In this document: positions 3,775-59,876 of the stretch, piece by piece | How the letters are laid out: each line of letters opens with the position of its first letter | Position numbering within the stretch: position 1 is the stretch's first letter | Assembly: GCA_000002445.1 (NCBI GenBank) | Contig: CP000071.1 | Location: 736,001 to 800,000 of the forward strand | Source: Trypanosoma brucei | Taxonomy: Eukaryota | Direction of reading: 5' to 3' | Length of the DNA stretch: 64,000 nt | The notes under the pieces: generated by a model | Database searches by the model: none | The model's input: only the letters and a program-made list of their open reading frames with translations | What the model was told of the DNA's origin: nothing | Translations under genes and position numbers: made by a program

Positions 3775-4707
3775 ATGCCAGTGTTTGAGAACAAGCATCT
3801 CCTCCGCGTCTTGCAACCCCCACAGCAACTGGCGCAGAACTTTGTAGCGTACTGCAAGGCACATCAGGTGCTTACTCGTGGTTTATGTCGTGTCGGCAAA
3901 ACAAAGCGCGGTGAACTGAGGGGCCTCATTGCCAACAAGGATATAAAGAAGGATGACAACATTGTGATGCTCTCAGAGCGGGCTTGTCTGCACCCGGGGA
4001 GGGCACTAAAGTGTGAAAGGTTTCTCGCCATCTTTCCGCAGAATGTTAAGGAGATGCTTTTACAGAATCCGTTATTTGTTCAGAACAGTCGTGTGGCCGA
4101 ACGCTCGATTATTCGGCATAATCAGTTTTTACTAGCGTGCTACATGACGTACTTGATTCTTCGCAACGATGAGAATGCAGAGGGCCAAGCGCTCAAGTAC
4201 ATCAACTTCATGCCTCGCAACGAGGGTAACTTTGAGCAGCTCATTAGCAACATGAACGGGGTACTTGACGGAGCTGCGGCGTGCCAGTCAGCGCAAGCGG
4301 CTCTTTCTTTGCAGTTTGGTATCACGCAGGCTGAGGTGCGACCGCTCCTACAGTGGTCCATGGCCATGATCTTTAGCCGTATGGCACCCATTGATCACCG
4401 TTGGACATTGCAGTGTGCATTTAAAAATACGCCTTTCGCGCCGGCTTTTGATATTCGGGGGCCAGATGACGATGCAAATATGGTTAAGGAACCCATCGCC
4501 TTTTTGTGTCCCGTCATCGACATGTGCAACCACAGCGATCACGAAAATGTCGCTCTTATGGTGCCCCAGCGCACTGACTCATCGCATGAATCGGTAATTT
4601 GCTTGCGCTCGCTTCGGGATATTGACCGCGGGGAGGAGCTCACTATGACGTACGGTGGATCGCCAACGGAGCTACGTGTTATATGGGGAATGCAACGCGT
4701 TTTGTGA
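3775..4707 (+). CDS. SET-domain protein (lysine methyltransferase-like, SETD6/Rkm-type)
   Basis: The C-terminal region carries FLCPVIDMCNHSDHENVAL (the NHS motif) and EELTMTYG, which are typical SET-domain signatures. The track start at 3748 is a TTG; the first ATG is at 3775. Confidence 0.65.
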   Translation: MPVFENKHLLRVLQPPQQLAQNFVAYCKAHQVLTRGLCRVGKTKRGELRGLIANKDIKKDDNIVMLSERACLHPGRALKCERFLAIFPQNVKEMLLQNPLFVQNSRVAERSIIRHNQFLLACYMTYLILRNDENAEGQALKYINFMPRNEGNFEQLISNMNGVLDGAAACQSAQAALSLQFGITQAEVRPLLQWSMAMIFSRMAPIDHRWTLQCAFKNTPFAPAFDIRGPDDDANMVKEPIAFLCPVIDMCNHSDHENVALMVPQRTDSSHESVICLRSLRDIDRGEELTMTYGGSPTELRVIWGMQRVL

Positions 4708-5127
4708 GTCGCGTAAGGACAAGGCGGTGTTGAGGGGGAAAGAGCGAGGTGTTAGTGGGGTCGGGCTGAGTTATTCCATTTATCGTAAGCACTCCTTAAC
4801 CACGAGGGGACAACCCCGTTTGCCATGACTATGGCGTTTGGTTGTTTACATTTGTTCCTGAGGGAGGTTATTAAGCATTGCTGTTTCTCGTGTTTCTGTG
4901 CCACCCTCCCTCCCGAGCACGCGAGCGCGTTCATTTTCAACGGCACCCCCACCCCTCCTTCTGTCACACACAATGTATGTTTCGATCACGTGTGTATCAC
5001 TAGCCACTGAAGGGTATTCAGCGCAGTTGGAGGCAGCGGCTCGCCAGATCTGTCCACAGCTGCTCAGGCGCTGGTGGTTACATGCGTCAAGGTGAAGGGC
5101 AAAGCGACCGCTTGCGACCGCTCGTAG

Positions 5128-5895
5128 ATGCACTTTCCCAGTATCGTGTTTAGACGGCACGGAGGTCGCCAGTGGATGCAGCAGCAGAGCCGTGACCCGT
5201 TCGTCTTGGAGGCGCGTCGGCGCGGATACGTTGCGCGCAGCGCCTTTAAACTATTGGAAATGGACGATAAGTTCACACTCTTTTCCAGAGGCAACACACG
5301 TGTTGTGGTGGACATTGGTTGCAGTCCTGGAAGTTGGCTGCAGGTCATACGCGAGCGGTGCGGGGACAAGTGTGCCGTTTTTGGTGTTGATGTGTTGCGT
5401 GTGGCCTCCACAGTCACTGGAGCAGTGTGCATCCAAGGTGACTTTACAAACCCAGCGGTACGCGAGGAGCTTCTCGCCCGCATGGTGACCGTTCGTGCGG
5501 CGGGGGTGGTGGACGTCGTAACATCGGACATGTGCCTTAACCGAGGTACAGGCAGTACGTCCGACAGGCAGAAGCAAGAGGAACTTAACCGGTCGGCACT
5601 AGCCTTTGCCTTGGAGCAGTTGGTACCAGGCGGGAATTTTGTGTGTAAGGTGCTTGGGTCTCCCACAGCCTACGAGGAGCTGCGAAGGGATACGTGTCGG
5701 TGGTTTGTGCGGACGGATATCTGCAAACCTTCTTCGAGTCGACTCACAAGTGACGAAGCATTCATGGTATGCCGGGGGAAACGTGAGATACCTCGTGATC
5801 GAAGTGGCGGATGTGATGGGACCTACGGCGGCCGATTTGGGTTGGACGATTGGCCAGGCCAACTGCGGGGCTCACCACGGCGACGCAAGCCGTAG
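5128..5895 (+). CDS. FtsJ/RrmJ-like rRNA 2'-O-ribose methyltransferase
   Basis: RSAFKLLEMDDKF is followed by VVDIGCSPGSWLQV, a SAM-binding motif like DLGAAPGGW. Later come VVTSDM and FVCKVL, which fit the K-D-K-E catalytic residues. The start is an ATG at 5128; an alternative is M17 at 5176. Confidence 0.7.
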   Translation: MHFPSIVFRRHGGRQWMQQQSRDPFVLEARRRGYVARSAFKLLEMDDKFTLFSRGNTRVVVDIGCSPGSWLQVIRERCGDKCAVFGVDVLRVASTVTGAVCIQGDFTNPAVREELLARMVTVRAAGVVDVVTSDMCLNRGTGSTSDRQKQEELNRSALAFALEQLVPGGNFVCKVLGSPTAYEELRRDTCRWFVRTDICKPSSSRLTSDEAFMVCRGKREIPRDRSGGCDGTYGGRFGLDDWPGQLRGSPRRRKP

Positions 5896-6146
5896 AGCCG
5901 GTTAGCTGTGGCGAAGCAAGGGAACAAGGTGGGTCCTAATAGTGTTTCTACCGACAGGACGTGAAGCTCTGGTGCCTGCCGTTGCAGCAGGCGAGAACTC
6001 CATCCCACGCCACCCCTACATATGCGCATGCACCTTTCCCTTCACCACCGTTGACATTTTTGTTTTCCGGTGGGTGTAAAAGATACTCCGAACAGGCAAC
6101 CAACTCTTTCTGCGCTGGACCCGCACGCATGTGACTTGACTTCTCC

Positions 6147-6920
6147 ATGTTACCTGGTAAACTCTTTAAAAGTACAGTTAAGGAAACTGATATGAGCATT
6201 TCATGTTCCCTGGCCGTTTTCCTGGTAGTCTACGCGTTGGGCTGCTGGGCTGACGGCACTCAGACGCGGGACAGGCCTTTCATGTATGCTGACAGCGTGC
6301 CTGCGCTTGCCCCGGGAGAAGTCCGAAGGAACGAAGCAATGCGCTTTCCATCGACGCTGGAAACGGAAGTGCGCCAGCGCTATGTGTTGACGAACATGCA
6401 AAGGGACGTGTACTATATTGCTCATCTTAGCTATCTCGGTTCCCCATCTATCATGTACAATCTCCATCTAACGCGTTTGCCACGTGCCACGGTCGGGGAA
6501 CTCCAACAGAAGAACCAAGCTGGCCCTGGTCAGCGGCATCTGTCCGATGTGAATCGAATGTACGTGAAGGCGCGCAAAGATGTCTTGCTCTTTGATTTCT
6601 TGGGAGGTGAAGGAGAGGTTGACAACGGTGATCACGACCCAGCAAATGATGATAGCTTTGTACCAGTTCTCGAGGTGCGCGGATATCGCAACGGCTTTCC
6701 GCACGAACCGGAGAAGTGGAAGGATTTCCGATACAACATCCGATTGGATGTCGTTGGAAGGGCCGATGGCCTCACAATGGCTATCATGTGGAATGTTGTC
6801 ACCGTGATTGTGATGGGAGTGTTTGTGATTGGCTTTGCCGCCCCGTGGGTCATCAGTACCGCTGCCGGGGATACAACCAATCAGCGGTCTCGGCGCGACT
6901 TCCTCATATTTTTTTGGTAG
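6147..6920 (+). CDS. Hypothetical membrane or secreted protein with a signal peptide and a C-terminal TM segment
   Basis: A hydrophobic N-terminus (MSISCSLAVFLVVYALGCWADG) follows the alternative start at 6192. A C-terminal TM segment (VTVIVMGVFVIGFAAPWVI) is followed by basic residues. No known domain was recognised. Confidence 0.45.
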   Translation: MLPGKLFKSTVKETDMSISCSLAVFLVVYALGCWADGTQTRDRPFMYADSVPALAPGEVRRNEAMRFPSTLETEVRQRYVLTNMQRDVYYIAHLSYLGSPSIMYNLHLTRLPRATVGELQQKNQAGPGQRHLSDVNRMYVKARKDVLLFDFLGGEGEVDNGDHDPANDDSFVPVLEVRGYRNGFPHEPEKWKDFRYNIRLDVVGRADGLTMAIMWNVVTVIVMGVFVIGFAAPWVISTAAGDTTNQRSRRDFLIFFW

Positions 6921-7394
6921 TTGTTGATTCAATCTCCAGTCAGAATAGGAAGCTGGGCAATTCACCACTCGGAAAAAAAGTACGACGAACATGAAGAGTC
7001 GGTGGCCAAAAAAAAAAAAGTAGTTGGGGTGCGGTGTATTGGTGGCTGAAACATGTATTTCAAAATATACTTAAACTTCACCCGCAGTTTATGGCCAAAC
7101 TACCACCACCGCCACCAAGCGCACATTTTCCCCGTCTTTGTCTCAAATTTGCTGATTTTTTTTCAGTTTCGACAAGGAGGCAAATAAGCGTAATAGGACC
7201 GCTGCGGCACACAGAAGGCACCATAAACGTGGCGTACAGGATCATAGTAACGCAAAGGCACGCTCGCTTTAAAGTAGTGCTATAGCCCTAAGAACAGAGA
7301 GCTTTCGTGATAAGGGGGGGGGAGAGAATCGGGTAACGTAACAAGACGTAATTTTTTGTATTTCGTCCAAATCGCGGGTGGTGATAAATTCAAC

Positions 7395-9416
7395 ATGCGT
7401 GACACAGGTCGCTGCAGCGGCCATAATGATGACGTAGTAGACCCCGTAACAAGCAACGGTGCTATGTCGCATGTCGGCCCTGATCTTGCACACCGTCAGG
7501 CACTTTACGAGGAGTCGGTTCGTGACCCCGTGGCCTTCTGGGAACAGGCCGCCGCTGACTTCCATTGGGAAAGAACTTGGCCCAAGGACAAATCGCCCCT
7601 GGAGTACAATTTCCACAAAAGCAATGGCAGCATTTTCGTCAAATGGTTCGACGGGGCAGAGTCGAACATGTGCTACAACGCTCTCGACCGGCATCTACCG
7701 AAACATAAGGACCGCGTGTGCTACCACTGGGAAGGTAATGATGAGGGAGAGAGTCGCGATGTGACGTACGGTGAGATGTTCGAGGAAGTCGTGCGTATCG
7801 CCGCAGTGCTGAAGCACCGCTACAATGTCAAGAAGGGCGACGTGGTCACCATATATCTACCGATGATACCCTTCGCCGCGCAGGTGATGCTCGCAGTGGC
7901 ACGCCTCGGCGCCGTCACCTCAGTCGTGTTCGCTGGCTTTTCGTCGCAGGCTGTTGCGAGCCGCCTGACAGACGCGAGGAGTAAACTCATCATCACTGCG
8001 GACAGCTTCTGGCGTGGCACCAAAACACTCCTACTGAAAGAGCTCAGTGACGCCGCGCTCGCCATTTGTGAGGCAGAGGGCCACAACGTCCAGTGCCTCG
8101 TGTACGATCGGTCCAAACGGGAAAATGTTCCCATGACAGAGGGCCGCGATGCGTGGTACAGCGACGTTGTAGAGACCCTCACGGCAAGTGAGCTCGCGGA
8201 TTGCCCCATTGTATGGATTGGGGCGGAGGATCCGCTTTTCCTCTTGTACACCTCTGGCAGCACTGGTAAACCCAAGGCAATCTTGCATACGCTGGGAGGT
8301 TACATGGTGTACGCCGGAGTCACCTTTAAGTACAGCTTTGACTACCACGAAAGTGATGTGTCGTTTTGTACAGCAGATATCGGGTGGATCACTGGCCACT
8401 CGTACGCACTGTATGGTCCGATGCTGAATGCCGCCACATCGGTACTGTTTGAGGGCATGCCAACGCACCCAACTCCGTCCCGCTGGTGGGATTTGGTAGA
8501 CAAGTACCGCGTTACGATCTTCTACACGGCTCCAACGGCTATACGGGCACTCATGCAGTGCGGTGATGAACATCTGCAGTCCACAACGCGGGGGACGCTG
8601 CGCATTCTTGGTAGCGTAGGGGAACCCATCAACGCAGAGGCGTGGCAGTGGTTTTATGAGGTGGTTGGTAAGCGCAGGGCGGACGTAATTGACACGTGGT
8701 GGCAAACGGAGACGGGTGGCCACCTCATTACCCCACTTCCTGGATGCACACCAATGAAGGCCGGAAGCGCCACCCTTCCTTTCTTTGGAATTGTTCCGGC
8801 GTTGCTTCATCCGACGACGAATGCAGTTGTTGAGGGTGAAGGTGAGGGACTTCTTGCTATGCAGACCCCCTGGCCAGGTATCGCACGCACCATCTTTGGT
8901 GACCACAACCGCTACGAGCAGGCATATTTTGCTGTGGATGGCTTTTATCTGACGGGTGATGGGGCTCGTCGGGACAAGGATGGTTACTACTGGATTACGG
9001 GCCGCGTGGATGACGTACTAAACGTCAGTGGTCATCGTATAGGAACGAGCGAGGTGGAGGAAGCGGTGAACAGCCATCCCGATGTCGCAGAAAGCGCTGC
9101 TGTTGGCATCCCACATGACGTGAAGGGTGAGTGCATCTACGTGTTTGTTACGTTCAACAACAATGTGACTGTGGACGCTACGTTGCTGAAAAGGGTGAGA
9201 GAAACAGTTCGCCGAGTCATTGGTCCATTCGCTGCCCCTGATTACGTCCAGGCAGCGCAGTGTGGGTTACCCAAGACACGCTCGGGAAAGATTATGCGTC
9301 GCATCCTTCGTAAGATTGCGTCTGGGTTGCATGAAGAGTTGGGTGACACCTCAACGCTCTTGGATCCGAGTGTTGTGCAAAACCTCATAGAAGGGAGGAA
9401 GCAAACAGTGGGGTGA
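7395..9416 (+). CDS. ACS: Acetyl-CoA synthetase (AMP-forming acetate-CoA ligase)
   Basis: The motifs YTSGSTGKPKA, TWWQTETGG and GDGARRDKDGYYWITGRVDDV mark the adenylate-forming-enzyme family, and the length of ~670 aa is typical. The track start at 7356 is a TTG. The first ATG is at 7395; an internal Met at 7464 is also possible. Confidence 0.9.
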   Translation: MRDTGRCSGHNDDVVDPVTSNGAMSHVGPDLAHRQALYEESVRDPVAFWEQAAADFHWERTWPKDKSPLEYNFHKSNGSIFVKWFDGAESNMCYNALDRHLPKHKDRVCYHWEGNDEGESRDVTYGEMFEEVVRIAAVLKHRYNVKKGDVVTIYLPMIPFAAQVMLAVARLGAVTSVVFAGFSSQAVASRLTDARSKLIITADSFWRGTKTLLLKELSDAALAICEAEGHNVQCLVYDRSKRENVPMTEGRDAWYSDVVETLTASELADCPIVWIGAEDPLFLLYTSGSTGKPKAILHTLGGYMVYAGVTFKYSFDYHESDVSFCTADIGWITGHSYALYGPMLNAATSVLFEGMPTHPTPSRWWDLVDKYRVTIFYTAPTAIRALMQCGDEHLQSTTRGTLRILGSVGEPINAEAWQWFYEVVGKRRADVIDTWWQTETGGHLITPLPGCTPMKAGSATLPFFGIVPALLHPTTNAVVEGEGEGLLAMQTPWPGIARTIFGDHNRYEQAYFAVDGFYLTGDGARRDKDGYYWITGRVDDVLNVSGHRIGTSEVEEAVNSHPDVAESAAVGIPHDVKGECIYVFVTFNNNVTVDATLLKRVRETVRRVIGPFAAPDYVQAAQCGLPKTRSGKIMRRILRKIASGLHEELGDTSTLLDPSVVQNLIEGRKQTVG

Positions 9417-10701
9417 TGAGCACTCCATGGCGAGTGGAAAGTAATGGAAAGGCATGAGAACTCCCGAAGCCTAGGCCGAGTAGGCTGAAGGTACCTCATG
9501 CAAATTAATATAGGCGTGGGTACCAACGAAAGACGGAGAAAAGACGTCCAAGGAACAAAGGAAAACGGGGATGGGGATGGGGCCACGAACGGTAACACTG
9601 CGGCAGAATGGGTGCTCTTTTACATCGCTCGTTTGCTTCGTTTCCGACCTTGTTTTTGTTGGTGCTAGCTGTAGTTGTCTAATCAAAAAGTTAAAGAAAA
9701 AAAAGAAAGGAAACTAAGTGCGGAACTTCGCACCTGCGGTAGGGCAGATGTCGGTCGTTTTAGGCTCCGGTGCATCTCTCTTTCTTCCGTCTCCCGTCTG
9801 TTTGACCCCATACAGTCCGTTTCCGTGTGAAAGGTCCCTACACGAATACCGTGGCATTGAGGAAAGAAATAAATGTGGAAGGTATTGAAACAGGGAGGCA
9901 AACGCCTGACCAGCCATTATGTGACACGATCATTGTTTTGGTGGAGGGGGAGGCGAAGGGGTAGGCGAAATGAGAGAGGTGTCACTCGTTATTGTTTTGT
10001 TTTTGTTTTTGTTTTTGTGTTTTGTGTTTTGTCTCCTCTTCTATTGTAAAGCAACTAACGTTCATCTCGGTAAAAAAAAAAGCGGGAAGTGGAGGTCGCA
10101 AAAGAGGCGCGGAAAAGGAATTGGGGAAAAACAAGCAGGCGAAGAGAGGATGATGACTACCGCGGAGACAAACACGTATACGAACTCACACGGTCAACTT
10201 TTATGTATTTATACGTGCAGGGTAGCTGATGGCACGATTTATTGGTGGCGGGAGGTAAACGACGGGAAAGAAAAGAAAAAAAAGGTGGAGAGGGAGAGGG
10301 AGAAGGAAAACGATGTATTAGTGGGCCCAAGCAAAACGGAAGACGAACCGATACAAAGGAAAGGTGAGAAGGGGGAGGGACCGTACACGTAATTGGTCTT
10401 TATTTATAACTTTGTTATCTTGCTTTTCCCACTTCATACTTGTTTTCTGCCCCAAGTTCACACTATTCGTAAGCGGCTGTAAGAAAAGGGGGCGGAAAAG
10501 GCTTAAGGTTTTTTCTTAGTGGTTATCCAAAGACAGTCGTCCGAGGTCGTTCCACCTGCCTACACATGCGGTGGTGCGAGTGTAGATTTAGGTGTGTATC
10601 CTTCTATTACTTTGTCTGAATTTCATTTACATGTTGTTTCGTGTTTCCTAAAAGGGCTGTTCCCCTCTGTTTTCCAGTAAAAACGTATCCACAAACGAAC
10701 G

Positions 10702-10742
<41 letters not shown>
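10702..10742. repeat. Compound microsatellite (TA)n(TG)n
   Basis: The tandem run is gtatatatatatatatatatatatgtgtgtgtgtgtgtgt. Confidence 0.9.
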
Positions 10743-11711
10743 ATTTGCGAATGTATTTTGTCCGCCATTGAGAATGGAAAGGTATTAAGGATTTACGGCG
10801 TCTCGTCGTTCGGCGATATCATTTCATTATGTCCCTCACTCGCTTTGTCTTTCTTGTTCCTAAAGCGCGTAATTCTTCGTTTCTTTTTTTTCTTTTTTCT
10901 TTCCTACTCCTTTTGTTATTATTGTTGTTGTTGTTTTTTTTTTCATTGGTTTATTGGTTGGTTTGTTTCTTTCGCTCTTATTGTTCAACCGACACGTGCA
11001 CGTCGTGTGGGAATGGAGAGAAAAGCATACGTGCCTTGCCGCTTCGGGCGCAGAACCTCGTGACTCAACCGTATAATTTGTAGACTGAAGCAAACGAGAA
11101 GACCCCCAAAAGAAAAAAACGAAAGTGGAGAAGAGTTTATTTTGGGGTGTAGTTCCGGGGAGCGGCGGCTAAGACAATGATGCAGGGAAGCGAAAAGGAA
11201 GAAAAGATGTGTGCACGTTGTCATGCTTGCAATTTTTTTTGCCATTATCTCTCTTTTTTGTTTTTGTTTTTCGTTTCACGTGTCGGTTATGCTTAATTTT
11301 GAGGTTGAGCTAAGCCCTCGTGTGACAGAAGTACTTACACTAAATCCATTCAAAAGAAACAACAGGGAGGGAAGGGGGGGAACTGAATTCGCTTGTGCCC
11401 CTGCAGTTGTCATTGATTCTTTTTTCTTTTCCTCTGTTCATCCCCTTTTCTCCATGTGTGAAAAGCCATCCACTTCTTTAAGCAAAAACTATTGTTTTTG
11501 AAGAGCAAACACATGCAAGGAAGAAAGCGCTGGCCTCTTTTTGTGATGTTATGTGGTATACTGACTCGTTGAAGCGAACGCTAAAACCACTAATCGGACA
11601 GAAGAGGGGTCATGCAAACACGGCTATTTGCACTTACAATCATATACTCGTAGCCACGTGAAGGAGGATCGTTGCATTTACTTACAGAATACCCTTACAG
11701 AGCGATTGGTC

Positions 11712-49064: not shown

Positions 49065-52000
49065 ATGTCGGTTACAGTGAACGCTGTTCGTGAGTCTGCA
49101 GAGGCTGTCAGCCTAACTATACTCTCATGTGAGCCCGCGCAGCAGAAAATAGCCGTCAGGTTCGGTGGCTCACATGGTGGTTGGCGTTGGATCGATGTTC
49201 CCACAAACACACCTGTTATATTAGAGCGCATGCGTCCGGAGGCAGGGGCAGAAAGCAGTGAGGGCCCTACCAGTAATGGTGCTGCAATGGAGGGGTGTGA
49301 GGAATATGAATTAGCCGTCACACCGTCTCCCCCTGTGGATGGGCGCGATGAGAGTGTTTGCTCGTTGGTCGGAGTCGATACCCGTCAAGTGGTTCAAAAG
49401 CCCGTTTTATTGAGTGGTGCAGATGAAGGAGGTCGTGTTTTTGAGCTTTTGTTGAAATGGACCCTGTTGGATGCAACTCCCACACCGCGGGAGTCAACAC
49501 CCGATAAAGCACCTGAAGATCACTCGGGCACGGAAACGGAAACACGGAATGAAGAGGAAGTAATTGTGGATACTGCGAATAAAGACGATGAGAAGGGTGA
49601 GGAAGCACCCCCGCCTCCTCCAATCGTTGCTCAACCCGACGAAAGTAAGGAGAAGGAAATATCCGAGAATCCCAGTGGTCACGATTCCCCCAAAGACAAA
49701 AGAGTTGAGCGACACGTTAACCCTGTGAAAGAATTGGAGGAGCCCAAACAGCAAGAGGCAGAGCGAGAGCCGCAACAAGAGCAAGCCCCACAACCTCGGT
49801 GCAACCAGAGTGAGTGGAAATGGAAAAGCAGCGTGATTCCAACACTCCCCGCGGATGTTTCGGCGGCACGCCACGTGCTCATTGCCACAATCGTATCAGT
49901 ACAGCAACCCGCAGTGTTACCGAATCGGCATGTAGTGGTAAAGCTAGGTATTGAGGCGCCCAATGAGCGCATGTCCCTTTTGCCGCTGTTGCGAACAAGG
50001 GCGGTTACACAGTATGATGCAGTAAAGGTTGCACAGATGGGGCCACCGGTGCTGTTTCCACTCTCAGAAAATGTTTCCGTTTATTGCGCCGTAGCGGATA
50101 AACGTGCAGATCATCCGAGTGATAGTGGTGGGATTGGGAGAAGGGTGTATCGCAGAGGCAGGCCCGCACCCACCAAATCACCCGGCAGATCGCTTGCAAG
50201 GATCCCAAAGGCCGAGTTGGATAAACACGCCGCGGAGAAGGCTTCCAAACCACACACGGCGACCTCGGGTGAATGTACTTTTTCCTTGCCCCAACGAATT
50301 GAGGGCACAGGCAACAGTGACAATGCCGGTGGTGGAAGGAATGGAGGTGCCAGTGTGTTTCATTGGGAGAAGCATTCCCACATGGAGCATGCGTACATTG
50401 CCCACGGTACAGTACAATGCGGAAACAACGAGGTAGAACTGGCCTTCCTCCGAATGACAGTCGGGGCGTACCGCGACGCGTGTCGAGGGCACGGTGCCGC
50501 CAGACGGAATGGATTTGGCACCGTCGAGGTTCGCGTGGAAGACATTGAATTAAACGAAACAACCGAAAAACAGCGGCCAGAGCATGATAACACCCTGGTG
50601 GAAGTTTGGCTGACACAACCGGAAGTGGATGCCGTTAGCGGTACCCATAGTGACAGGACCGGCGCAGCCGCTGCGGCATCCACTTCCACAAAAAACAGCT
50701 CGGGGTGCCGCCATCTGGTGCTCCTAAGTAGCAGTAATTGCATTCAGCCGCTGCATTTTCCTGTGAGCGAACCCTTCGCATATCTTTCTTGGGCAGTGGT
50801 ACCAGCACAACAGAAACAAGGTGTTCAGGAAAATGTACTTCATGGCGCTGCGCCCATATGTCTCGTGCGGCCGGGTGTTTGGACACCAATCACAATAAAA
50901 CTTAGAGACAGGAATAAATCCGCCTCCTTTATTAAACTTTGGTACTGCTTCACTAGCGACGGTCGCAGCGGGATGGACGACCCCAGTCGGCCATATCATC
51001 CAGCTTCAAAGAGCACTGATGATGGCAATTGTTATTCACTTCGAGTTTACTTAGACAGTTGCACCAACCTCTACCCCCTAGTGCAACTATACTCTCGTGA
51101 TGGTAATGCGAAGGCATTCCGCCTCTTGATCATGGACCCAGAGGACGAGGTAGCCGTATCCGCCTCTCGTCCTATGGACTTGAATGACATGCAGCTCTAC
51201 TGTAACTACAAAGGGGGAGAAGACAGGACACCCCCCGCCATTAAGCTTCTGTTTACGCGAGTATTCCCCTCGCATGCTCTGTACCGTTCCAGTGACTATA
51301 CAGTATCGAATACTGGCGAGCAAGCAGGCACTTGCAGCGTTACGTTTTTATGCCGATTGTTTGCATTTGCCTCAGTTGCCGAAGCTCACGCAATGAACAA
51401 CGCCCACTGCATAGGCGAGGGACGTGTAGTTGTCTTCCCTGGCAATGTGGTCAATGGCAAAGACGGAACAAACCTGGACATTGATGTGCACGTGGCCGTT
51501 GATGGCATGTTTACCCCGGGTCCCGTTGCCGTGAAACCGACCGCGGTTACGTCCCCGCCACCATGCACTGTGCTTAGAATGCGCGGAGAAGTGGAACGGG
51601 CACCTTGCGGGGAGGGAGATGCAGTGATATGCGTACGCTCCGTTCAGCTTTTCCATCGGCAGCAGCAACAAAAAAGACGCGGTCGAGTGGTGTGGACCGA
51701 TGGGGGTTTGTCTGCAGTGTACGCGTGCTTCTGGCTCTGCCGTGGACTAAGTGGTGGTGGCGTGAAGGAGTGGAAAGAAGCACTTAAGGGTTGTCAAGTG
51801 TTAACGCTCACACCTAAGCAACAGAGGCATCACCACCACCAGCAGCAGCAGGAGGTGTCGTTGCAGTGTAACGAATTCGTCCTTTCTACAGGTGGAGAGA
51901 AGCTTGTGTTGTGCGCTGTTTTCATTCCTAAAACGACGGAAACTGTTGACGACGAGGCCAAGGTGCGTAACACCGCCTCTAACTTGCTGAGGAAGCTGGT

Positions 52001-54824
52001 GCGCAAAGTGAACAAAAAGAAACAGGAAAGCGAGTCCGGTTTACGTCATGTGCAGGGAACCATGAGGGCCCTGAATTACTTAGAAGTTGACCTAACGCTG
52101 TCCGCAGCTGCACAAGGTGCCGTTGTGGGAACCGCGCATATCAACGACGAACTATTGCTACAACTAAAAGCGGCGTGGGTCAAAGTACCATCAGGTGTCG
52201 GCGCTGCAACTGTCCCCCGTGGGTCCGCAACCCAACCGGTAGATCAGCCTTCACCACATTTATGGGCGCTTCGCCTGACATTCCCCACGCAACCCGCCCG
52301 GTCCCATGTGAACGTACATGTCAAATCCTGGCCTGTTGCATATGACGACCTTTCACATGAGCAACAGCAAACATTCAATTCAAACCTGGTCAAGGCACAT
52401 AGAGGCGGTGGTGCCGCAACTAAAGTGGACTCGACCATGTCAAGTGCCTTTTATATTGTGCGCCCACTTCGTTTAGAGCCAGCAGAGGGGGAATGGACAT
52501 TGTTCATCTTCGGTGACGCCTGCACCACACGCACTCGATTAGCTGCCTCCGTAGGGGAAACGGTGCTAGAGCATGTTGTAGTAGACTATCTTCTCCCTCA
52601 GTCCTTGTCGCTTGCCAAAGGTGTTATCGTTGACTGTTTTCATGGCTCTCTCCATGCGGATGAGGCAGGTGAACTGAAACGAAGAGCTGAGGGTGAGCAA
52701 CGGTGGCGCCGAAAGTTGAGGGAGGACCCAAGCATACAACAGCCATGTCAACTATTTGTGCCCTTCACCTCACTAGCGATATCAGCTGACGGTAGTGACC
52801 CAGTCACCTTGCGTTATCACACGCTAACGCGCTGCACAGATGATGGAGCGTTGCTCATCGGTGCCGCCACGTCTAATGGGAAAGGCGCCATATTTCATTA
52901 TAATATCAACGAGAACACATGGTCTGTCCTCCCCATTCGTGCTCCCCAAGATGGCAAAGACAAAAAGCGCCGTGAGCAAGGCAAGAGGGACAACAACGGA
53001 GCTGAAGACGCAGATAATTCTCAGCAGGCTAGCCATTTTTCCACGCGATGCATTACAAGCCGTCATGGTCACACAACAGTTTGCTCTTCAACAGAAAAGT
53101 GTGCCTACGTCTATGGCGGGATCGGCATCGGTGGAACAGATCCAGAGGCAGCAACAGCAGCGGTGGCCGAAAGCAACAGAAGTGACAAGAGTGCTGCACT
53201 TAGCCCAAAACTAGGCTCCACCTCCAGCCCTAAGTGGCCTGTAGGGTTTATGCGTGATATCTGGTGCATTAACTATGCTGAAGGAACAGCAACTTGTCTG
53301 TGCAGTGGCGAGAACCAAACGGTGTCTGCTCCAATCTCTCGGTGGCGGCACGCAGCGGCATTTCACAACGACAGCGTAATCATCATTGGGGGTAGAACGG
53401 CTCCGGCTCTCCAACAAGAAGGTGCGAAGGAAACAAACGAAGAAAAGCTACTGACGGAGGAGGAAACCCAAAAGAAACAGGAAGACGGTCAAACCTTTTA
53501 TCAGTCTCACGGCGGTGAGGAGGAAGATTTATTGCTTCGTAGGGATGGCTTATGCAGCTGTTGCTCTCTCCTCGTATTTGACTTGAATCGTCGTGCGTGG
53601 GGCACACAAACAACTTCGGGCGCTACACCAGCACCAAGGTATGGTCACGCCAGCGCTGTGCTCGGCACCTGCGTGTATATCTTCGGCGGTATGACCCAAC
53701 GAAACCACCTTCTGGACGATTTGCACGAGCTCGATATTGCCACGAACACCTGGCGCCGTGTGGAATACAACGGTGCTGTTGCACCACCACCTTCGCACCT
53801 CGCTGCCATGGAAGCCATAACGGTTTCTAATACACCGTGTTTGGTACTTACCGTGGGCGCCGCAGGCAATGGCGAAGAGCGTGAGGCTGGCGATGCTGCG
53901 GAGCGCGGTGTAGACGCACTGAGGTTGTACCTGTTCTCGCACGCGTCGCAGTTTTGGCGTAGGCTTCGCTTCAATTGCGCGCCGTTGCCTGCACCCGTGG
54001 GGGTTGCCATGTGTGATGCCACACCGGCTTCGATGCGACAACATGGCAGACGCCAGCAGCCGCTACGGCATCGCTCCCTTCCCCTGAATAAGGCAGTGTT
54101 GTTCAGAATGTTGGTTGTTGGAGGGATGAAAGCCGGCTCCCCGAACAAGGGCAGTGCGTACATTGCTGATTATGGGCTGGAACGCGAGAGCACCATTAGG
54201 CCCGTTGTGCCGACACTTCTTAATGTTGCGCGGGACGTGATTGCCGAGAGGCGCCAGGATGAACGAAGAGAACCCCCGCACTCTGCGGATCTCAGAAACA
54301 TAAATCTAGAACGATCACCAATAAGAAAGGGAATCGGCCAGCGTACAGCTTCATCGCTATGTACAACGCCGAGGGGGGCCCGCAGTGGCCGCAAACCCTA
54401 CAAAAGTGGTCCTCTGAAGATAGCTTACCGTTCCTCGTCGGCGGGACCACTCACGCAAGACCAACAGCGCGGTCTCATACACCGTTTGTACTACAACCAG
54501 TGCCACGCCCAAGAGGAGCGTAAAAAGGGAGAGTTGCAGGAACAACCGCGATCAGGAAAGATGCCCATCAGCGGACGAAAATATAATCCGCACCCGCCCA
54601 TGCAGCGGAAGGCTTGGGGGGCGCCGGCGGCTCCTCGCGCCGACTGCATGCGACCCCGCAAACCGGCAACAGCAGGGCCGTACCGCAACCATAGGCACCT
54701 TGACTCATCTGGCGATACGCAAATAAAACCCCAGAATGACAGCAGAGGAGAGGAATTAACTGCAACAGCGCCGCCGACGCCAGTTGTAGCAGCGGGGCGC
54801 CGGCTTAGCGATCCAGAAAACTAA
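49065..54824 (+). CDS. Very large kelch-repeat protein (1919 aa)
   Basis: Kelch and beta-propeller blades are marked by RWRHAAAFHNDSVIIIGGR, RYGHASAVLGTCVYIFGG and ATNTWRRV. The N-terminal half is acidic and low-complexity. An HHHHQQQQ tract is present. Confidence 0.6.
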   Translation: MSVTVNAVRESAEAVSLTILSCEPAQQKIAVRFGGSHGGWRWIDVPTNTPVILERMRPEAGAESSEGPTSNGAAMEGCEEYELAVTPSPPVDGRDESVCSLVGVDTRQVVQKPVLLSGADEGGRVFELLLKWTLLDATPTPRESTPDKAPEDHSGTETETRNEEEVIVDTANKDDEKGEEAPPPPPIVAQPDESKEKEISENPSGHDSPKDKRVERHVNPVKELEEPKQQEAEREPQQEQAPQPRCNQSEWKWKSSVIPTLPADVSAARHVLIATIVSVQQPAVLPNRHVVVKLGIEAPNERMSLLPLLRTRAVTQYDAVKVAQMGPPVLFPLSENVSVYCAVADKRADHPSDSGGIGRRVYRRGRPAPTKSPGRSLARIPKAELDKHAAEKASKPHTATSGECTFSLPQRIEGTGNSDNAGGGRNGGASVFHWEKHSHMEHAYIAHGTVQCGNNEVELAFLRMTVGAYRDACRGHGAARRNGFGTVEVRVEDIELNETTEKQRPEHDNTLVEVWLTQPEVDAVSGTHSDRTGAAAAASTSTKNSSGCRHLVLLSSSNCIQPLHFPVSEPFAYLSWAVVPAQQKQGVQENVLHGAAPICLVRPGVWTPITIKLRDRNKSASFIKLWYCFTSDGRSGMDDPSRPYHPASKSTDDGNCYSLRVYLDSCTNLYPLVQLYSRDGNAKAFRLLIMDPEDEVAVSASRPMDLNDMQLYCNYKGGEDRTPPAIKLLFTRVFPSHALYRSSDYTVSNTGEQAGTCSVTFLCRLFAFASVAEAHAMNNAHCIGEGRVVVFPGNVVNGKDGTNLDIDVHVAVDGMFTPGPVAVKPTAVTSPPPCTVLRMRGEVERAPCGEGDAVICVRSVQLFHRQQQQKRRGRVVWTDGGLSAVYACFWLCRGLSGGGVKEWKEALKGCQVLTLTPKQQRHHHHQQQQEVSLQCNEFVLSTGGEKLVLCAVFIPKTTETVDDEAKVRNTASNLLRKLVRKVNKKKQESESGLRHVQGTMRALNYLEVDLTLSAAAQGAVVGTAHINDELLLQLKAAWVKVPSGVGAATVPRGSATQPVDQPSPHLWALRLTFPTQPARSHVNVHVKSWPVAYDDLSHEQQQTFNSNLVKAHRGGGAATKVDSTMSSAFYIVRPLRLEPAEGEWTLFIFGDACTTRTRLAASVGETVLEHVVVDYLLPQSLSLAKGVIVDCFHGSLHADEAGELKRRAEGEQRWRRKLREDPSIQQPCQLFVPFTSLAISADGSDPVTLRYHTLTRCTDDGALLIGAATSNGKGAIFHYNINENTWSVLPIRAPQDGKDKKRREQGKRDNNGAEDADNSQQASHFSTRCITSRHGHTTVCSSTEKCAYVYGGIGIGGTDPEAATAAVAESNRSDKSAALSPKLGSTSSPKWPVGFMRDIWCINYAEGTATCLCSGENQTVSAPISRWRHAAAFHNDSVIIIGGRTAPALQQEGAKETNEEKLLTEEETQKKQEDGQTFYQSHGGEEEDLLLRRDGLCSCCSLLVFDLNRRAWGTQTTSGATPAPRYGHASAVLGTCVYIFGGMTQRNHLLDDLHELDIATNTWRRVEYNGAVAPPPSHLAAMEAITVSNTPCLVLTVGAAGNGEEREAGDAAERGVDALRLYLFSHASQFWRRLRFNCAPLPAPVGVAMCDATPASMRQHGRRQQPLRHRSLPLNKAVLFRMLVVGGMKAGSPNKGSAYIADYGLERESTIRPVVPTLLNVARDVIAERRQDERREPPHSADLRNINLERSPIRKGIGQRTASSLCTTPRGARSGRKPYKSGPLKIAYRSSSAGPLTQDQQRGLIHRLYYNQCHAQEERKKGELQEQPRSGKMPISGRKYNPHPPMQRKAWGAPAAPRADCMRPRKPATAGPYRNHRHLDSSGDTQIKPQNDSRGEELTATAPPTPVVAAGRRLSDPEN

Positions 54825-55766
54825 AGGGAGAAAAAAAAAACACAACATTGGGGAAGGAGGTGAACGTTGCAAAGGCTATACGATGCCATCACGTTCCGAA
54901 ACAAAAGGCCGAAGCAGTGCATGAAAAGAGAATAAAAAAAAAACGAAAACCGGCACCATCACCGGCGCACCCTCGGCTCGGCCTAGTAAGATAGAGCAAG
55001 AGGCGTGCAAGTGTTTTAAGAAAAAAAAGATCGGTGGCATAACTCCATTATCCCCTTTTAGGAAGCCCGCATCTGCAGGGCAACAGCGGACAGAACTGCT
55101 CATACGTAGTGTAGTGTATATGACAATCGCTTACATGAGACTGCACCGAACACACGAAGTAGACGTGTTAAACGGTGAAGGAGTTGTTGGGCAATTAGTG
55201 TAACTAACAAAACCAATAAAAGCGGTTGCTTGGGACGCCTATTCGATTCAATATGGTTTAACCAAGGGATGCGCTGTAGGGACCTGGGCACATTAAAACG
55301 TTACTTAGCCCGCGAGCATCACCTGGGTTTCGCAGCCGCATTAGTTTGCAGTAGGTGTATTTATATAAGTTATGAGGAGAGAGATTTTCAACCCATCACT
55401 AGATCTTGTTTTCACGCAATGCACTTAATGTGCCCTATAATATACTGTACGGATAGTTGATGAAATGGAAACTTGCGTCTCTTTAACGGGGTGCCGCTTC
55501 TTGCGCACTGCTAGTTATTCGGGAATAATGTACCTTTTATAAAACGCAAATGGCCTTTTTTGTTTTATTTTGTCTTGTTGTGCCCGTGTATTCCTTGCCT
55601 CTAAAGCGCCTCTACTTGACGCGGAATATGTGGCATAGAGCTGATTTTCGCTTCATCTCCGAAGCCACTCCTTCATTATGCACGAGTTGCTTAACCACAA
55701 CAGCTCGACCTGTTATTATTGCACCCTCGATGCTTTGTGTATTCTTTTTTTTTTTCTACTGCCGCC

Positions 55767-55788
55767 TGTGTGTGTGTGTGTGTGTGTG
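55767..55788. repeat. (TG)n microsatellite
   Basis: The run is tgtgtgtgtgtgtgtgtgtgtg. Confidence 0.85.
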
Positions 55789-57455
55789 CGTTTGCGCAGG
55801 TGCCCCTGCTGGAAACTGGTGCTTGTTTGTAACCGTGCTTTGCTTACACCTTCCCCTGATACAAAAGGAAGGAAGTTCGTTCTCCTCTTCAACCAACCGC
55901 TGTCACGTGCCAACCTTAATTTACACCCACCAACAAGCGGCCCTTTCATGTGGACTACGGCGGCTGCTTGGGCTCTGGCGGCAAATATGTAAGGGGCTAT
56001 GTGTTGTGAAGGGATTGAAGATACGAACCCAAGGAGGCTGCCAAAAAGCGGGGAAACGTTGGCAAAAAATAATATATATATACATATATAGCGGCATATG
56101 AGGCGGCACAAGCGTAGATACGGCGTCCGATTGATTTTGTTCATTTTGTGGCGAGCCCACTTGTACGCAGTTGGGTTACGTTTCTTTTTTTTTTTTTGGA
56201 ATGGAACACCGCAGAAATAGGAGAGACCTTGGGGACGCAAGTGGAGGATGTGTAGGATTAATGTCACGCCGTAACCACGACGTTCAAAGAAGGTATTGGA
56301 GGGAAAACCGCAAGCGTTACACGGTGATACAACCTCTGCTTTCCGATAGGAAAGGATCCCAACCATTGGACCTCAGAGGGGATGCATGACCAAAATTATT
56401 GTTAACCGAGCAATGCTTTGATGGGGATGATGAATTCTGTCGCTTCCCCTTCCTTATGCTTGCGTGTGTGAGTGGTGGAAAGGCTGCTTATCCATTGGGC
56501 CGCGCTCCCTCTACGCCTCCCATCCCAGAGACCGTAAGAAGGGATGTTGCTAGTTTTTTCTCATTTCCCACCGCCGACTCCACCGGAATGTGCTAGCCTA
56601 TACCCCCTCCTCAGCCCGTTTGGGGCGTCGCAACCGACCTCTCGACGCGTCGACGGCTGCCACCTCTACCTTAACTTGCCGTCGTTTTCTTAACGCAGTT
56701 GTGCTTTTCTGTCACGCTCGTCTTTCCCGGTGACAATACTTGTTTCCTTTCCCTGCTGGCTGTGTTGAAACGGATCCACCCAGCCCGTTGAGACCCCTCC
56801 CCCTTTGCTTGAATCCCCCCACCCCATGTGTGCCCGACATTTGAAGTGGTTTATAGCGCTCGGCTGATTCGCCATGCCCGGCCGGTAAATGGTGCCCACC
56901 CGTCGGTGTGTGAGAATGGTCGTTTTAGCCCTTACTCTGCAGTTAGCTCCCTTCCGTTGCCTCGCCTACCACAACCTTCACATGCAACGGATCCCTTTCA
57001 CTGTGCTAAAGCGCTGCGGCCTCCACAACCCATACCAGTCCGATGTGTCTTCGGGCGCCTGGTTACATCATCCCTGTTAGCGATCCCCATCCCTCACCCT
57101 CTTTCCTCAACACCCTGTTCGGACGCGCCGTCCACGGTCTCTCCAGTACGTCGGCACACTTCAACGAGTCGTGGAACCGTTTCTTTACCTCGGTTGCCTG
57201 AAGCTTCTCGAGTGGTTACTTTTATGTCTTCTTCAAGGAAAGTAGCGATATTCGGTTCAAAGTTGGAAACATTTCCCCTGTCCTGTAGCCGAAGGTGACG
57301 TCGCAACGCTGTCCAGTGGTGTCCGACATCCAATTGCTGGCTGCTGTTACGATTTGGCCTTTCGTGATCCACTCAGCAGGTAATCTCCGGCTGTGAACCC
57401 GCCCCGCAGCGGCTTAACCGTGAACTTGTACGTCAAAAGCAACGGTCGCTGCGTG

Positions 57456-57528
57456 TCCTCCCTGGCGCAGTCGGCAGCGCGTTAGGCTGTTAACCTACAG
57501 GTCGTTGGTTCGAATCCAACGGGAGGAG
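57456..57528 (+). tRNA. tRNA-Asn (anticodon GTT)
   Basis: A manual cloverleaf fits. The acceptor stem is TCCTCCC/GGGAGGA. The D-arm is GCGC-AGTCGGCA-GCGC. The anticodon loop is CTGTTAA (GTT). The T-arm is GTTGG-TTCGAAT-CCAAC, and the discriminator is G. A T7 run follows. One U-C mismatch closes the anticodon stem. Confidence 0.8.
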
Positions 57529-57536
57529 CTTTTTTT
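57529..57536 (+). terminator. Pol III terminator T-run after tRNA-Asn
   Basis: The run cttttttt lies immediately 3' of the tRNA. Confidence 0.6.
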
Positions 57537-57607
57537 CCATAGCGAGTGACGCTGTCTGTTCGAAATTGAAATTGAGTAAAGTCCGATATGATTGAGTGTG
57601 TTGGGGG

Positions 57608-57612
57608 AAAAA
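57608..57612 (-). terminator. Pol III terminator (T5 on the minus strand) after tRNA-Trp
   Basis: An A5 run on the plus strand lies immediately 3' of the minus-strand tRNA. Confidence 0.55.
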
Positions 57613-57613
57613 G

Positions 57614-57685
57614 TGAGGACTGCAGGGATTGAACCTGCGACCCCTGGATTTGGAATCCAATGCTCTACCACTGAGCTAAGCCCCC
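57614..57685 (-). tRNA. tRNA-Trp (anticodon CCA)
   Basis: The reverse complement folds as GGGGGCT-TA-GCTC-AGTGGTA-GAGC-A-TTGGA-TTCCAAA-TCCAG-GGGTC-GCAGG-TTCAATC-CCTGC-AGTCCTC-A. The A box and B box are canonical. The acceptor stem has two G-U pairs. Confidence 0.8.
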
Positions 57686-57774
57686 GTCGCCGGTCTAGAC
57701 AGGTTTAAATATCTAGGTATACTGATTCACCGCTTGTCCACTCTGTCCTTTGGCTATCTGATCGGAACATTCGG

Positions 57775-58195
57775 TGGGTGCCGGCCTGCGGTCACATAGG
57801 TATAGCGATGTCATAATGTTGAGACACTTTTTCACTGAATTTTGAACCGCTTTAGCACGTGGAACGTAGCACGTTAAATCTGTGCGGCAAACCCCATAAC
57901 AAATGAAAAATACCCGCCGTTCCCATGCATTCGAGAGGAGTTCAATTCTCCATGAGAAAGGGGGGTAATTGCATGGTCCCCCCTCCCCAGTGGACGGGAG
58001 AAAGAGCTTTATGGAGTTAGTCCCTTTGCATCAAGTGAGGCACTGTCCTTTCGGATACCCTGTAGCTGCGGGGTGCGTATGGCAACGGGGACTTCAAAGC
58101 CTGACGTGGCAGGCTGTTTCGACCACTTGCTTGGCTGGTGGGCTTTGGGCTTCTAGGTCACCAGTTCCCCATTGTCTCTCCCTTAACTAGTTTTT
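57775..58195 (+). ncRNA. Candidate Pol III-transcribed small RNA locus (snRNA/7SL-like), with identity and exact ends unresolved
   Basis: The segment is non-coding, non-repetitive and structured. It begins about 95-100 bp downstream of the divergently oriented tRNA-Trp 5' end. It contains an Sm-like RAUUUUGR site at 57847-57855. It has a tRNA T-arm-like hairpin GGAG-TTCAATT-CTCC at 57937-57951. It has a strong hairpin G6-TAATTGCATGGT-C6 at 57960-57983, and it ends in a T11 run at 58185-58195. An internal T5 at 57828-57832 argues against a single transcript from 57775. There may be two units, or the RNA may start near 57905. Confidence 0.25.
58185..58195 (+). terminator. T11 run, a candidate Pol III terminator for the small RNA; it could instead be the start of the polyY region for the downstream gene
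   Basis: The run is ctagttttttttttt. Confidence 0.3.
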
Positions 58196-58340
58196 TTTTT
58201 TGCCTTCATCCTCTTCGTGGTGTTCTTTCCTTCGTGTGGCGTCCGCCGGCGCGTCGTTGGCCACCGTTTTGCCCCGTTACGTTTGCCGTGCTCAGTGTGA
58301 CATCGCTCCGACCTCACGTTCATACACAGTGCGACTTCAT
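58196..58340 (+). promoter_or_regulatory. Pyrimidine-rich region upstream of the NDUFAF7-like gene, a probable trans-splice signal region
   Basis: The region reads gccttcatcctcttcgtggtgttctttccttcgtgtggcgtccgcc... with CT-rich runs and AG dinucleotides before the ATG at 58590. Confidence 0.3.
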
Positions 58341-58589
58341 TATCAACTGTGTCTTTTCTGTTGTCTAGCTCAGCCTCTGGGTGATGGGCGTCTGCAAGCG
58401 CCGCTCTTACCCACCCCTGATTGCTATGTATCTGCGCGGGTGGGGCCACCTTCAACCGCACAGCGACTTTTTTAAATAGGCACTTACATTTACCTACTTC
58501 GTCCCTCTTCTCTTAACATCGTGGGTTGCTTCACCCGGTTTTCGGTTGTTGTTAACACTTGTAACTTTGGATTAGATCGGTAAATATAT

Positions 58590-59876
58590 ATGCTCAGAAG
58601 AGCGGTACCCCGTTTTTTCAGCAGGACGCGTCCGGCCCTTGTGAATTTACATGCAAGCGAGTTGTCGACACCGGATAGGTCAACCGTTAATTCAACCAAC
58701 AGGAAAGAGCTCAAAACGCCCCTTTGCGTCGAGTTGATAAGCAAGATGTCATCACAAGGGTATTTTCCGATGTCACAATTTGTTAAGGAATGTCTAACGC
58801 ACCCTCAACATGGATATTACTCGACGAAGAAAAATGTAATAGGTAGCGAAAAGGCTGATTTTATCACAGCTGCTGAGATACCGTTCTTTGCGGACATTGT
58901 TTCGGCCTGGATAATGGACGTATGGCAGAAGATGGGTACTCCACGGGTTCTTCATCTGGTTGAGCTGGGTCCTGGAAGAGGAACGCTGATGAAGAACATT
59001 CTGAAACAAATAAAATACTCCAACCCCCACTTGCTCCATTTTTTGCAGATTCACCTTGTCGAAGTAGGTGCCGCTCGAACGGACGAGCAAAGGAGTGCGC
59101 TAAGTGAGTTTCAAACTGCCCAAAAGAAGATAAAGTGGTGGATGGGATTAGAGTCCATTCCCTTGACGTTAGAACCCACCGTATATATTGCAAACGAGTA
59201 CTTTGACGCACTGCCGGTAGCACAGTTTCGTTACACAGAGCGTGGATGGGTGGAAACGTGTTTAGAGGTTGACGAAGATCCAGCTCACGAAGCTCATTTT
59301 CGGATGGTACATGCGCCTTCTGGGTCTTTTTCGGCATACCTCATTCCCAACGATGTCCGTGCGAATGGAAAAATTGGTGATTGTATCGAAATAAATGCTG
59401 TTGGAATGCAAACAATGGAGCTCATTATGAAAAAGATGGTGGAGTGCCAAAAATCAGCATGCCTCATCGTGGACTACGGGAAGGATGAGCACATGCACAG
59501 CACACTGAGGGGAATTCGAGGTCACAGATTCGTCGATCCACTTCTTTCTCCTGGAGAAGTCGACCTGTCTTCATGGGTCAGCTTCAAACAGCTACGATGG
59601 TCGATGGAGCGACTGGAGACTGCCAGGCGCCATCTTAAATGGTTTCCCGTTATATCCCAAAGCGAATTTCTCCAGTGGGGTGGGATTGATGTAAGGCTTG
59701 CGCATGTCATAAAGGATGAGGAAACCAAAAGCGCGATGAAAATATTGCAGAACTACCGCAGACTTATGGACAAGAACGAAATGGGGGAAAGCTATAAGGT
59801 GTTTGCTCTACAAACACGAAATTTCCCCAACGTATCGCCCTTTTTTCAAGAAGCCGAGCTTCCCTCTTCGTTGTGA
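58590..59876 (+). CDS. NDUFAF7/MidA-like (DUF185) SAM-dependent methyltransferase, a probable mitochondrial complex-I assembly arginine methyltransferase
   Basis: The N-terminus (MLRRAVPRFFSRTRPALV) looks like a presequence. The SAM-binding motif is LVELGPGRGTLMKNIL. The DUF185-type C-terminal region includes IVDYGKDEH. Confidence 0.7.
   Translation: MLRRAVPRFFSRTRPALVNLHASELSTPDRSTVNSTNRKELKTPLCVELISKMSSQGYFPMSQFVKECLTHPQHGYYSTKKNVIGSEKADFITAAEIPFFADIVSAWIMDVWQKMGTPRVLHLVELGPGRGTLMKNILKQIKYSNPHLLHFLQIHLVEVGAARTDEQRSALSEFQTAQKKIKWWMGLESIPLTLEPTVYIANEYFDALPVAQFRYTERGWVETCLEVDEDPAHEAHFRMVHAPSGSFSAYLIPNDVRANGKIGDCIEINAVGMQTMELIMKKMVECQKSACLIVDYGKDEHMHSTLRGIRGHRFVDPLLSPGEVDLSSWVSFKQLRWSMERLETARRHLKWFPVISQSEFLQWGGIDVRLAHVIKDEETKSAMKILQNYRRLMDKNEMGESYKVFALQTRNFPNVSPFFQEAELPSSL

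Follow-up and report, generated by a model that had tools for sequence, protein, structure and literature searches.

[quoted passage not shown] In a 64-kb window of TREU927 chromosome 8 (the whole stretch of DNA analyzed, to which all positions refer unless stated otherwise), the original prediction placed a + strand Pol III gene next to a minus-strand tRNA-Trp gene, starting near 57775–57785 and running through structured sequence to a run of 11 Ts (T11) at 58191–58201. The arrangement is reminiscent of trypanosomatid snRNA, U3, and 7SL genes, which need the A and B boxes of a divergent tRNA or tRNA-like element, have box A 104–106 bp upstream of +1, and place a third promoter element in the opening ~21 nt of the RNA (PMC4950102). 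According to PMC4950102, which summarizes Nakaar (1994), the tRNA-dependent Pol III small-RNA genes are the U1–U6 snRNAs, U3, and 7SL. A tRNA-Trp-driven + strand gene extending to T11 finds no support in our results on RNA family, terminators, structure, cross-species conservation, and variation within the species. Very probably, the locus is an annotated tRNA island between two co-directional Pol II arrays, a known termination site, and the segment in question is not a gene. The ~500 bp from tRNA-Trp to T11 would then represent unconstrained 5′ flank and spacer DNA. The main value of the analysis is thus negative, in that an unannotated Pol III small RNA that had looked plausible drops out as a candidate; what is left is an ordinary annotated tRNA locus, and the coincidence of tRNA genes with a termination region has been published previously.

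The two tRNA genes themselves are real. The tRNA-Asn(GTT) gene (57456–57529, + strand) is annotated in TREU927 as Tb927.8.2663 and the tRNA-Trp(CCA) gene (57613–57685, minus strand) as Tb927.8.2666. Both were found with ARAGORN and with the Rfam RF00005 covariance model (63.9 and 68.5 bits, respectively, well above the gathering score of 29 bits), each with its anticodon, and they were the sole ARAGORN and Rfam finds across the 64-kb window. The genes are convergent and separated by 83 bp. A T-run scan detected a T7 terminator at 57530–57536 (+ strand) and a T5 terminator at 57608–57612 (minus strand; A5 on the + strand), each immediately 3′ of its gene and each longer than the minimum of four Ts looked for, so that the original call of two opposed tRNA genes, each with its own T-run, was right. 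The promoter boxes of tRNA-Trp were also placed correctly: on the minus strand, box A (TAGCTCAGTGG) lies at 57678–57668 and box B (GGTTCAATCCC) at 57635–57625. Pol III transcribes each tRNA from the A and B boxes inside the gene, and each transcript ends at its own T-run within the 83-bp spacer. Tb927.8.2666 is the single Trp-CCA copy, and the T. brucei nuclear genome has no other tRNA-Trp gene. Padilla-Mejia et al. (2009) list the pair as Tb08_tRNA_Asn_1 (Tb927.8.2663, 793455..793527) and Tb08_tRNA_Trp_1 (Tb927.8.2666, complement of 793613..793684), coordinates on chromosome 8 of TREU927 that equal those of the window plus 735,999. The window thus spans chr8:736,000–799,999, and the original guess of chromosome 8 was right. 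The 3′ flank given for Tb08_tRNA_Asn_1 in Additional file 2 of that paper (GCTTTTTTTCCATAGCGAGTG) and the one given for Tb08_tRNA_Trp_1 (TTTTTCCCCCAACACACT) are the same in the window, and no associated Pol III gene is given for the pair in that listing. The tRNA-Asn and tRNA-Trp genes were thus correctly called, but they were already annotated in T. brucei.

The position at which a tRNA-Trp “companion” transcript would begin can be derived from geometry only. Adding 104–106 bp to box A gives a hypothetical + strand start at 57782–57784, and the arithmetic behind the original estimate was therefore right; the position is uninformative by itself, because one like it exists upstream of any tRNA. 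What follows the putative start does not fit an RNA reaching T11. The T-run scan revealed a T5 (57828–57832) and a T4 (57840–57843) on the + strand, 46–61 nt past the predicted start, so that the coding region of the proposed 419-nt RNA is interrupted at +46–50 and again at +58–61; no further run of T4 or longer was found between the T4 and T11. The terminators of T. brucei tRNA genes have a mean of 4.89 Ts (range 4–10), frequently with a back-up run. Since the T5 and T4 have normal terminator strength, Pol III should stop after ~50–61 nt and not after 419 nt, i.e., ~360 nt ahead of T11, and the description of the segment as T11-terminated does not hold. The 5′ flank of tRNA-Trp (57686–57781) had the properties of unconstrained spacer. 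No A-box-like or B-box-like motif was found with up to two mismatches either in this flank or in the segment, and tRNA-like elements in the segment were thus rejected. A minus-strand companion gene of tRNA-Asn was likewise discarded, as no minus-strand T-run occurs within 900 nt to the left. A motif CCTGCG(C)GGT, present near the predicted start in both T. brucei and T. vivax, was also set aside: by a rough estimate, chance alone should yield about one match of this kind over the region, and the two copies are left unaligned by MAFFT. One published lncRNA table contains no entry at these coordinates.

Folding energies gave no support for a structured RNA. Compared with dinucleotide shuffles, the + strand of 57781–58201 (421 nt) reached −131.8 kcal/mol vs. 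−130.9 ± 6.3 for the shuffled sequences (z = −0.15), and the minus strand of the same interval had z = −0.72. Ten sub-windows of 63–120 nt ranged from z = −0.65 to z = +0.96, and the 52 nt up to the end of the T5 (57781–57832) scored z = +0.56. The region between the T4 and T11 (57846–58190), formerly described as a structured segment, is a unique, fast-evolving sequence that folds at chance level, no better than when shuffled. The accompanying description of the sequence as non-repetitive was confirmed, 57686–58589 being unique within the window.

The segment could not be assigned to any known RNA family. A search of 57300–58600 with Rfam 15 at E ≤ 10 yielded, beyond the tRNAs, only chance matches far below the gathering thresholds (E 0.88–9.3 in the segment), and none of the known small RNAs suggested for it was recovered either by gathering score or at E ≤ 10. 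Nor were other Rfam families detected at seven syntenic Trypanosoma loci. Two candidates were considered individually. At 57825–57845, CACUUUUUCACUG followed by AAUUUUGA resembled the loop and Sm site of U5 snRNA. This candidate was dropped, as the T. brucei U5 gene is annotated on chromosome 10, the Rfam U5 model gave no match at E ≤ 10, and the stretch is polymorphic, with a T-to-G change at 57840 breaking the Sm-like U-run. The T. brucei vault RNA, which is reportedly TBsRNA-10 (a designation said to go back to Kolev in 2019), is a Pol III small RNA that Rfam might miss and was hence a plausible candidate. Its specific primers (vtRNA primers, PMC12547018 Table S1), however, had no match in the 64-kb window at up to three mismatches. 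Taken against the tRNA-dependent snRNA, 7SL, and U3 genes, the segment shares the divergent tRNA, complete with boxes A and B, and a possible start 104–106 bp away, but differs in belonging to no RNA family, in lacking structure and conservation, in its high polymorphism, in having a terminator at ~50 nt instead of at T11, and in a tRNA orientation that varies across Trypanosoma.

Variation within the species was assessed on four sequences, namely the window, T. b. gambiense, and two more from the T. brucei group; the values below refer to T. b. gambiense, and the other comparisons were similar. Both tRNAs were free of differences in all four sequences (0%), and the coding sequence of the downstream NDUFAF7 gene had 2 in 1287 positions (0.16%). 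The non-coding DNA on either side of the island was also little changed, with 24/2631 differences at 54825–57455 (0.9%) and 4/399 at 58191–58589 (1.0%). Between tRNA-Trp and T11 the values rose to 6/95 at 57686–57780 (6.3%; 6–7 differences across the sequences), 4/65 at 57781–57845 (6.2%), and 11/345 at 57846–58190 (3.2%; 10–13 across the sequences). The excess of this segment (3.2–6.3% substitutions) over other non-coding DNA (0.9%) is significant (Poisson P = 1.3e-10). Among the changes, the T-to-G substitution at 57840 removes the T4 in T. b. gambiense and related sequences, while the T5 is kept in all four. A functional small RNA would not be expected to be the fastest-evolving DNA of its locus, and the divergence argues against constraint. 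As a separate observation, the substitution excess between T. brucei isolates is sharply localized around the tRNA pair; hypermutation of tRNA flanks as a general rule was not reproduced in two T. cruzi haplotype contigs.

The comparison was extended to T. vivax, T. cruzi, T. c. marinkellei, T. theileri, T. melophagium, T. grayi, and T. conorhini. In each of these seven species tRNA-Trp lies upstream of the NDUFAF7 orthologue, so that the linkage holds in all eight Trypanosoma. T. vivax has the Asn(+)/Trp(−) arrangement of T. brucei, yet the alignment of the two species falls to background identity from the tRNA boundary onward, and the first T-run in T. vivax comes 164 nt after the predicted start. 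The tRNA-Trp gene is on the + strand, often in duplicate, in T. cruzi, T. c. marinkellei, T. theileri, T. melophagium, and T. grayi, so that the divergent geometry is not conserved. When the 3-kb stretches preceding NDUFAF7 were compared all against all by BLASTN, sequence shared beyond sister taxa was limited to the tRNAs; T. conorhini, represented by 632 bp of upstream sequence, gave no match whatever. Conservation of 57690–58200, which the existence of a small-RNA gene had been expected to entail, was thus absent beyond the tRNAs in the seven other species. Two outcomes named at the outset as refuting the gene, the lack of an Rfam match and the lack of conservation in other Trypanosoma, were therefore both observed. 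A protein search gave no T. congolense orthologue that could have provided a closer outgroup; an RNA that arose very recently in T. brucei alone would go unnoticed in such a comparison, although the high divergence within the species argues against constraint.

The T11 run finds a different explanation. Together with the C/T-rich stretch that continues it (58187–58240, + strand; T11 proper at 58191–58201), it is the only place in 57700–58600 where a 30-nt window reaches at least 85% pyrimidine. In trypanosome mRNA processing, a spliced-leader acceptor is marked by a polypyrimidine tract and then an AG. An AG scan placed the first AG after the tract, a predicted spliced-leader addition site, at 58294–58295, ~90 nt past T11 and ~295 nt ahead of the NDUFAF7 ATG (58590), so that the acceptor pattern of tract, AG, and downstream ORF is complete in the sequence. 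The arrangement is that of other trypanosome trans-splice acceptors, with a T8-GCCTT-pyrimidine-AG equivalent in T. vivax; the block of T-run, GCCTT, and pyrimidines is the sole non-tRNA block common to T. brucei and T. vivax, at ~506 and ~530 nt from the tRNA. Most likely, T11 opens the polypyrimidine tract belonging to the splice acceptor of NDUFAF7. It would direct spliced-leader addition at a downstream AG, with 58294 as the first candidate, for the NDUFAF7 mRNA.

Two readings in which tRNA-Trp drives a companion RNA have to be weighed against these data. In one, the tRNA is the divergent promoter of a structured Pol III RNA of ~419 nt (57783–58201), which would be of the 7SL, snRNA, vault, or MRP type, either new or divergent. 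Features in favor of such a gene are the intact A and B boxes, suitably spaced from a possible start, the long T-run at 58191–58201, and the unique sequence. We nevertheless regard it as hardly credible: the RNA would have to read through the internal T5 and T4 of normal strength 46–61 nt from its start, has neither an Rfam match nor identity with vtRNA, shows no detectable structure, and would be unusually long for its gene class. In addition, its sequence is unconserved even in T. vivax, where the tRNA orientation is the same, the geometry is lost through reversal of tRNA-Trp in the stercorarian trypanosomes, and the segment is 3–6% divergent within the species. A shorter Pol III transcript of ~50–61 nt, from 57782–57784 to the T5/T4, avoids the terminator problem; it could be a by-product of TFIIIB/TFIIIC binding or a young T. 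brucei-specific small RNA. It agrees with the companion-gene spacing rule, and the T5, which all four T. brucei-group sequences preserve, is plausibly distant from the start. This reading appears improbable as well, if less so than the 419-nt RNA. The element needed in the first ~21 nt is not recognizable (no consensus exists for it), isolates differ by four substitutions across the 65-nt stretch (6.2%), one of which abolishes the T4, and structure is missing (z = +0.56 and +0.96). Moreover, there is no T. vivax equivalent, the first T-run there being 164 nt from the predicted start, and no associated Pol III gene is given for the locus by Padilla-Mejia et al. (2009). Were it true, divergent “companion” transcription would be a general by-product of trypanosome tRNA genes and a source of new small RNAs.

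Under the preferred reading of a tRNA island bounded by two Pol II arrays, the surroundings of the pair become relevant. Upstream lies a kelch-repeat gene of 1919 aa (49065–54824, + strand), followed by a 2.6-kb non-coding stretch (54825–57455) that carries microsatellites (T-run, (GT)n, and (TA)n) as well as chance ORFs without conservation; this stretch probably holds the 3′ UTR of the kelch-repeat gene and part of a Pol II termination zone. The first gene past the island (58590–59876, + strand) encodes an NDUFAF7/MidA-type methyltransferase (Pfam PF02636), whose predicted product has 100% identity with the T. b. gambiense protein. One-directional coding, as claimed originally, was borne out in that long ORFs are overwhelmingly on the + strand. 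The gap was not strictly ORF-free, as it contains chance ORFs of 183, 216, and 156 aa (183 and 156 aa on the + strand, 216 aa on the minus strand), and the two + strand ORFs had no cross-species match at syntenic loci.

The tRNA-associated Pol II termination regions of T. brucei are said to have been described by Siegel in 2009 and, as regards their annotation, by Muller in 2018. Staneva et al. (2021) report that, among 154 annotated Pol II termination regions, 20 coincide with tRNA or snRNA genes, and that eight proteins as well as the Pol III subunit RPC1 are enriched at these sites. Table S8 of that study, which refers to Chr8_core of strain Lister 427 whereas our window is from TREU927, lists tRNA-Asn at 657296–657369 and tRNA-Trp at 657453–657526, both overlapping “sTTR_30” and both marked “yes” for RNAPIII/TTR-associated factors. 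Membership in a termination region comes from this literature look-up; the locus is identical to that in the window, with the same 83-bp spacing, co-directional flanking arrays, and bound factors, and no difference was found. The suggestion that Pol II transcription is attenuated or terminated at the Pol III island is thus correct for this exact locus, since both genes fall under sTTR_30, yet it had been published previously. The occupied Pol III genes act as a boundary that ends Pol II transcription arriving from the upstream array, and Pol II would start anew for the array headed by NDUFAF7. Comparative synteny agrees with the island being a boundary. Synteny of NDUFAF7 and the gene after it extends to all eight Trypanosoma species, while none of the T. 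brucei genes upstream of the island was found at the loci of the other species. In T. vivax the island lies inside a divergent strand-switch region, and NDUFAF7 thus heads a transcription unit there.

Re-initiation downstream of the island also bears on whether the segment is inert spacer or, alternatively, holds elements of a Pol II promoter or start region serving the NDUFAF7 array. A unidirectional termination region followed by genes on the same strand requires re-initiation nearby, the T. vivax island sits in a divergent strand-switch region, and NDUFAF7 is the first conserved gene past the island in all species. Against this, the segment has no motif common to the species and diverges fast within T. 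brucei. Start regions of T. brucei are broad (kilobases) and poorly defined by sequence, and this breadth bars localizing a start to 57690–58200 by sequence alone. We consider start-region elements in the segment possible but doubtful, and clearly a better prospect than either companion RNA. Apart from these considerations, we observed that tRNA-Trp stays linked to the first gene of the conserved array even though salivarian and stercorarian trypanosomes carry the tRNA in opposite orientations.

Comparison of the TREU927 sequence with three T. brucei-group sequences revealed a local substitution hotspot at window positions 57400-58170, with the convergent tRNA pair at its centre. Within the hotspot 7-10 variant sites were counted per 200 nt, vs. 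0-3 elsewhere outside microsatellites. In the 588 nt flanking the tRNAs we found 26 substitutions, as compared to the 5.4 expected (P = 1.3e-10); these are unpolarised differences. Although the tRNA-Asn and tRNA-Trp genes lie inside the hotspot, both are invariant across the T. brucei-group sequences. The elevated substitution level might stem from transcription-associated mutagenesis at the tRNA genes, from chromatin in the termination region or from an old haplotype. The indel-rich bins observed in the strain comparison are accounted for by simple repeats in the 2.6 kb that precede the tRNA genes, namely a (GT)n microsatellite, itself preceded by a T-run, and a (TA)n stretch (55745-55790 and 56070-56095), as well as a T14 run (56185-56198).

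We also compared two T. cruzi contigs (L012 and L013) over positions 2000-9000, and no substitution hotspot was found at tRNA-Trp in this interval. Instead, a step in divergence was observed, from 2-5% all along the sequence upstream of tRNA-Trp to approximately 0-1% from the tRNA onwards. The T. cruzi tRNA-Trp is the edge of a conserved block, adjoining an RHS-containing region.

The tRNA-Trp gene was located directly upstream of the methyltransferase gene NDUFAF7 in all Trypanosoma species examined (loci L001, L002, L011, L012, L014, and L015), while no tRNA was found at the Novymonas locus. Its orientation differs between species: T. brucei and T. vivax carry the gene on the minus strand, and T. 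cruzi, T. c. marinkellei, T. theileri, T. melophagium, and T. grayi carry it on the plus strand. T. theileri, T. grayi, and T. melophagium each have two plus-strand copies. This strand difference suggests that tRNA-Trp was inverted in the salivarian lineage. A plus-strand A-box-like element, GGCCGTAGCTCAGTTCC, was detected in the T. vivax locus (L002, 5961-6020). It begins about 25 nt away from the tRNA-Trp 5′ end, and two T4 runs come after it, at 6006-6019. The element was not called by ARAGORN or Rfam and has no counterpart in T. brucei; it may represent a degenerate tRNA or a tRNA-like remnant, perhaps a leftover of the tRNA-Trp inversion. In T. brucei, a T-arm-like hairpin, GGAG-TTCAATT-CTCC, is present at 57937-57951, midway along the segment between tRNA-Trp and the T11 run. 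It gave no match to tRNA models at E<=10, and the resemblance is probably due to chance. The T. grayi locus (L014) contains two tRNA-Asn genes (865-937 and 941-1013) separated by 3 nt, a gap that leaves no space for an intervening T-run terminator. The doublet may reflect dicistronic tRNA transcription or an artefact of the assembly.

The gene at 57613-57685 is the sole tRNA-Trp(CCA) gene of the T. brucei nuclear genome and has to serve the mitochondrion too, where its anticodon is edited to decode UGA. An essential single-copy tRNA gene is vulnerable when placed within a zone of Pol II termination.

The original prediction regarded the gap holding the tRNAs as the only interruption of the coding array. 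This was not borne out, since a second, 4.1-kb stretch contains no ORF of at least 150 aa, and the tRNA gap is therefore not unique in missing long ORFs. The stretch surrounds two plus-strand ORFs of equal length (140 aa; 9970-10392 and 10641-11063) with 250 nt between them, which are probably tandem copies of a small gene.
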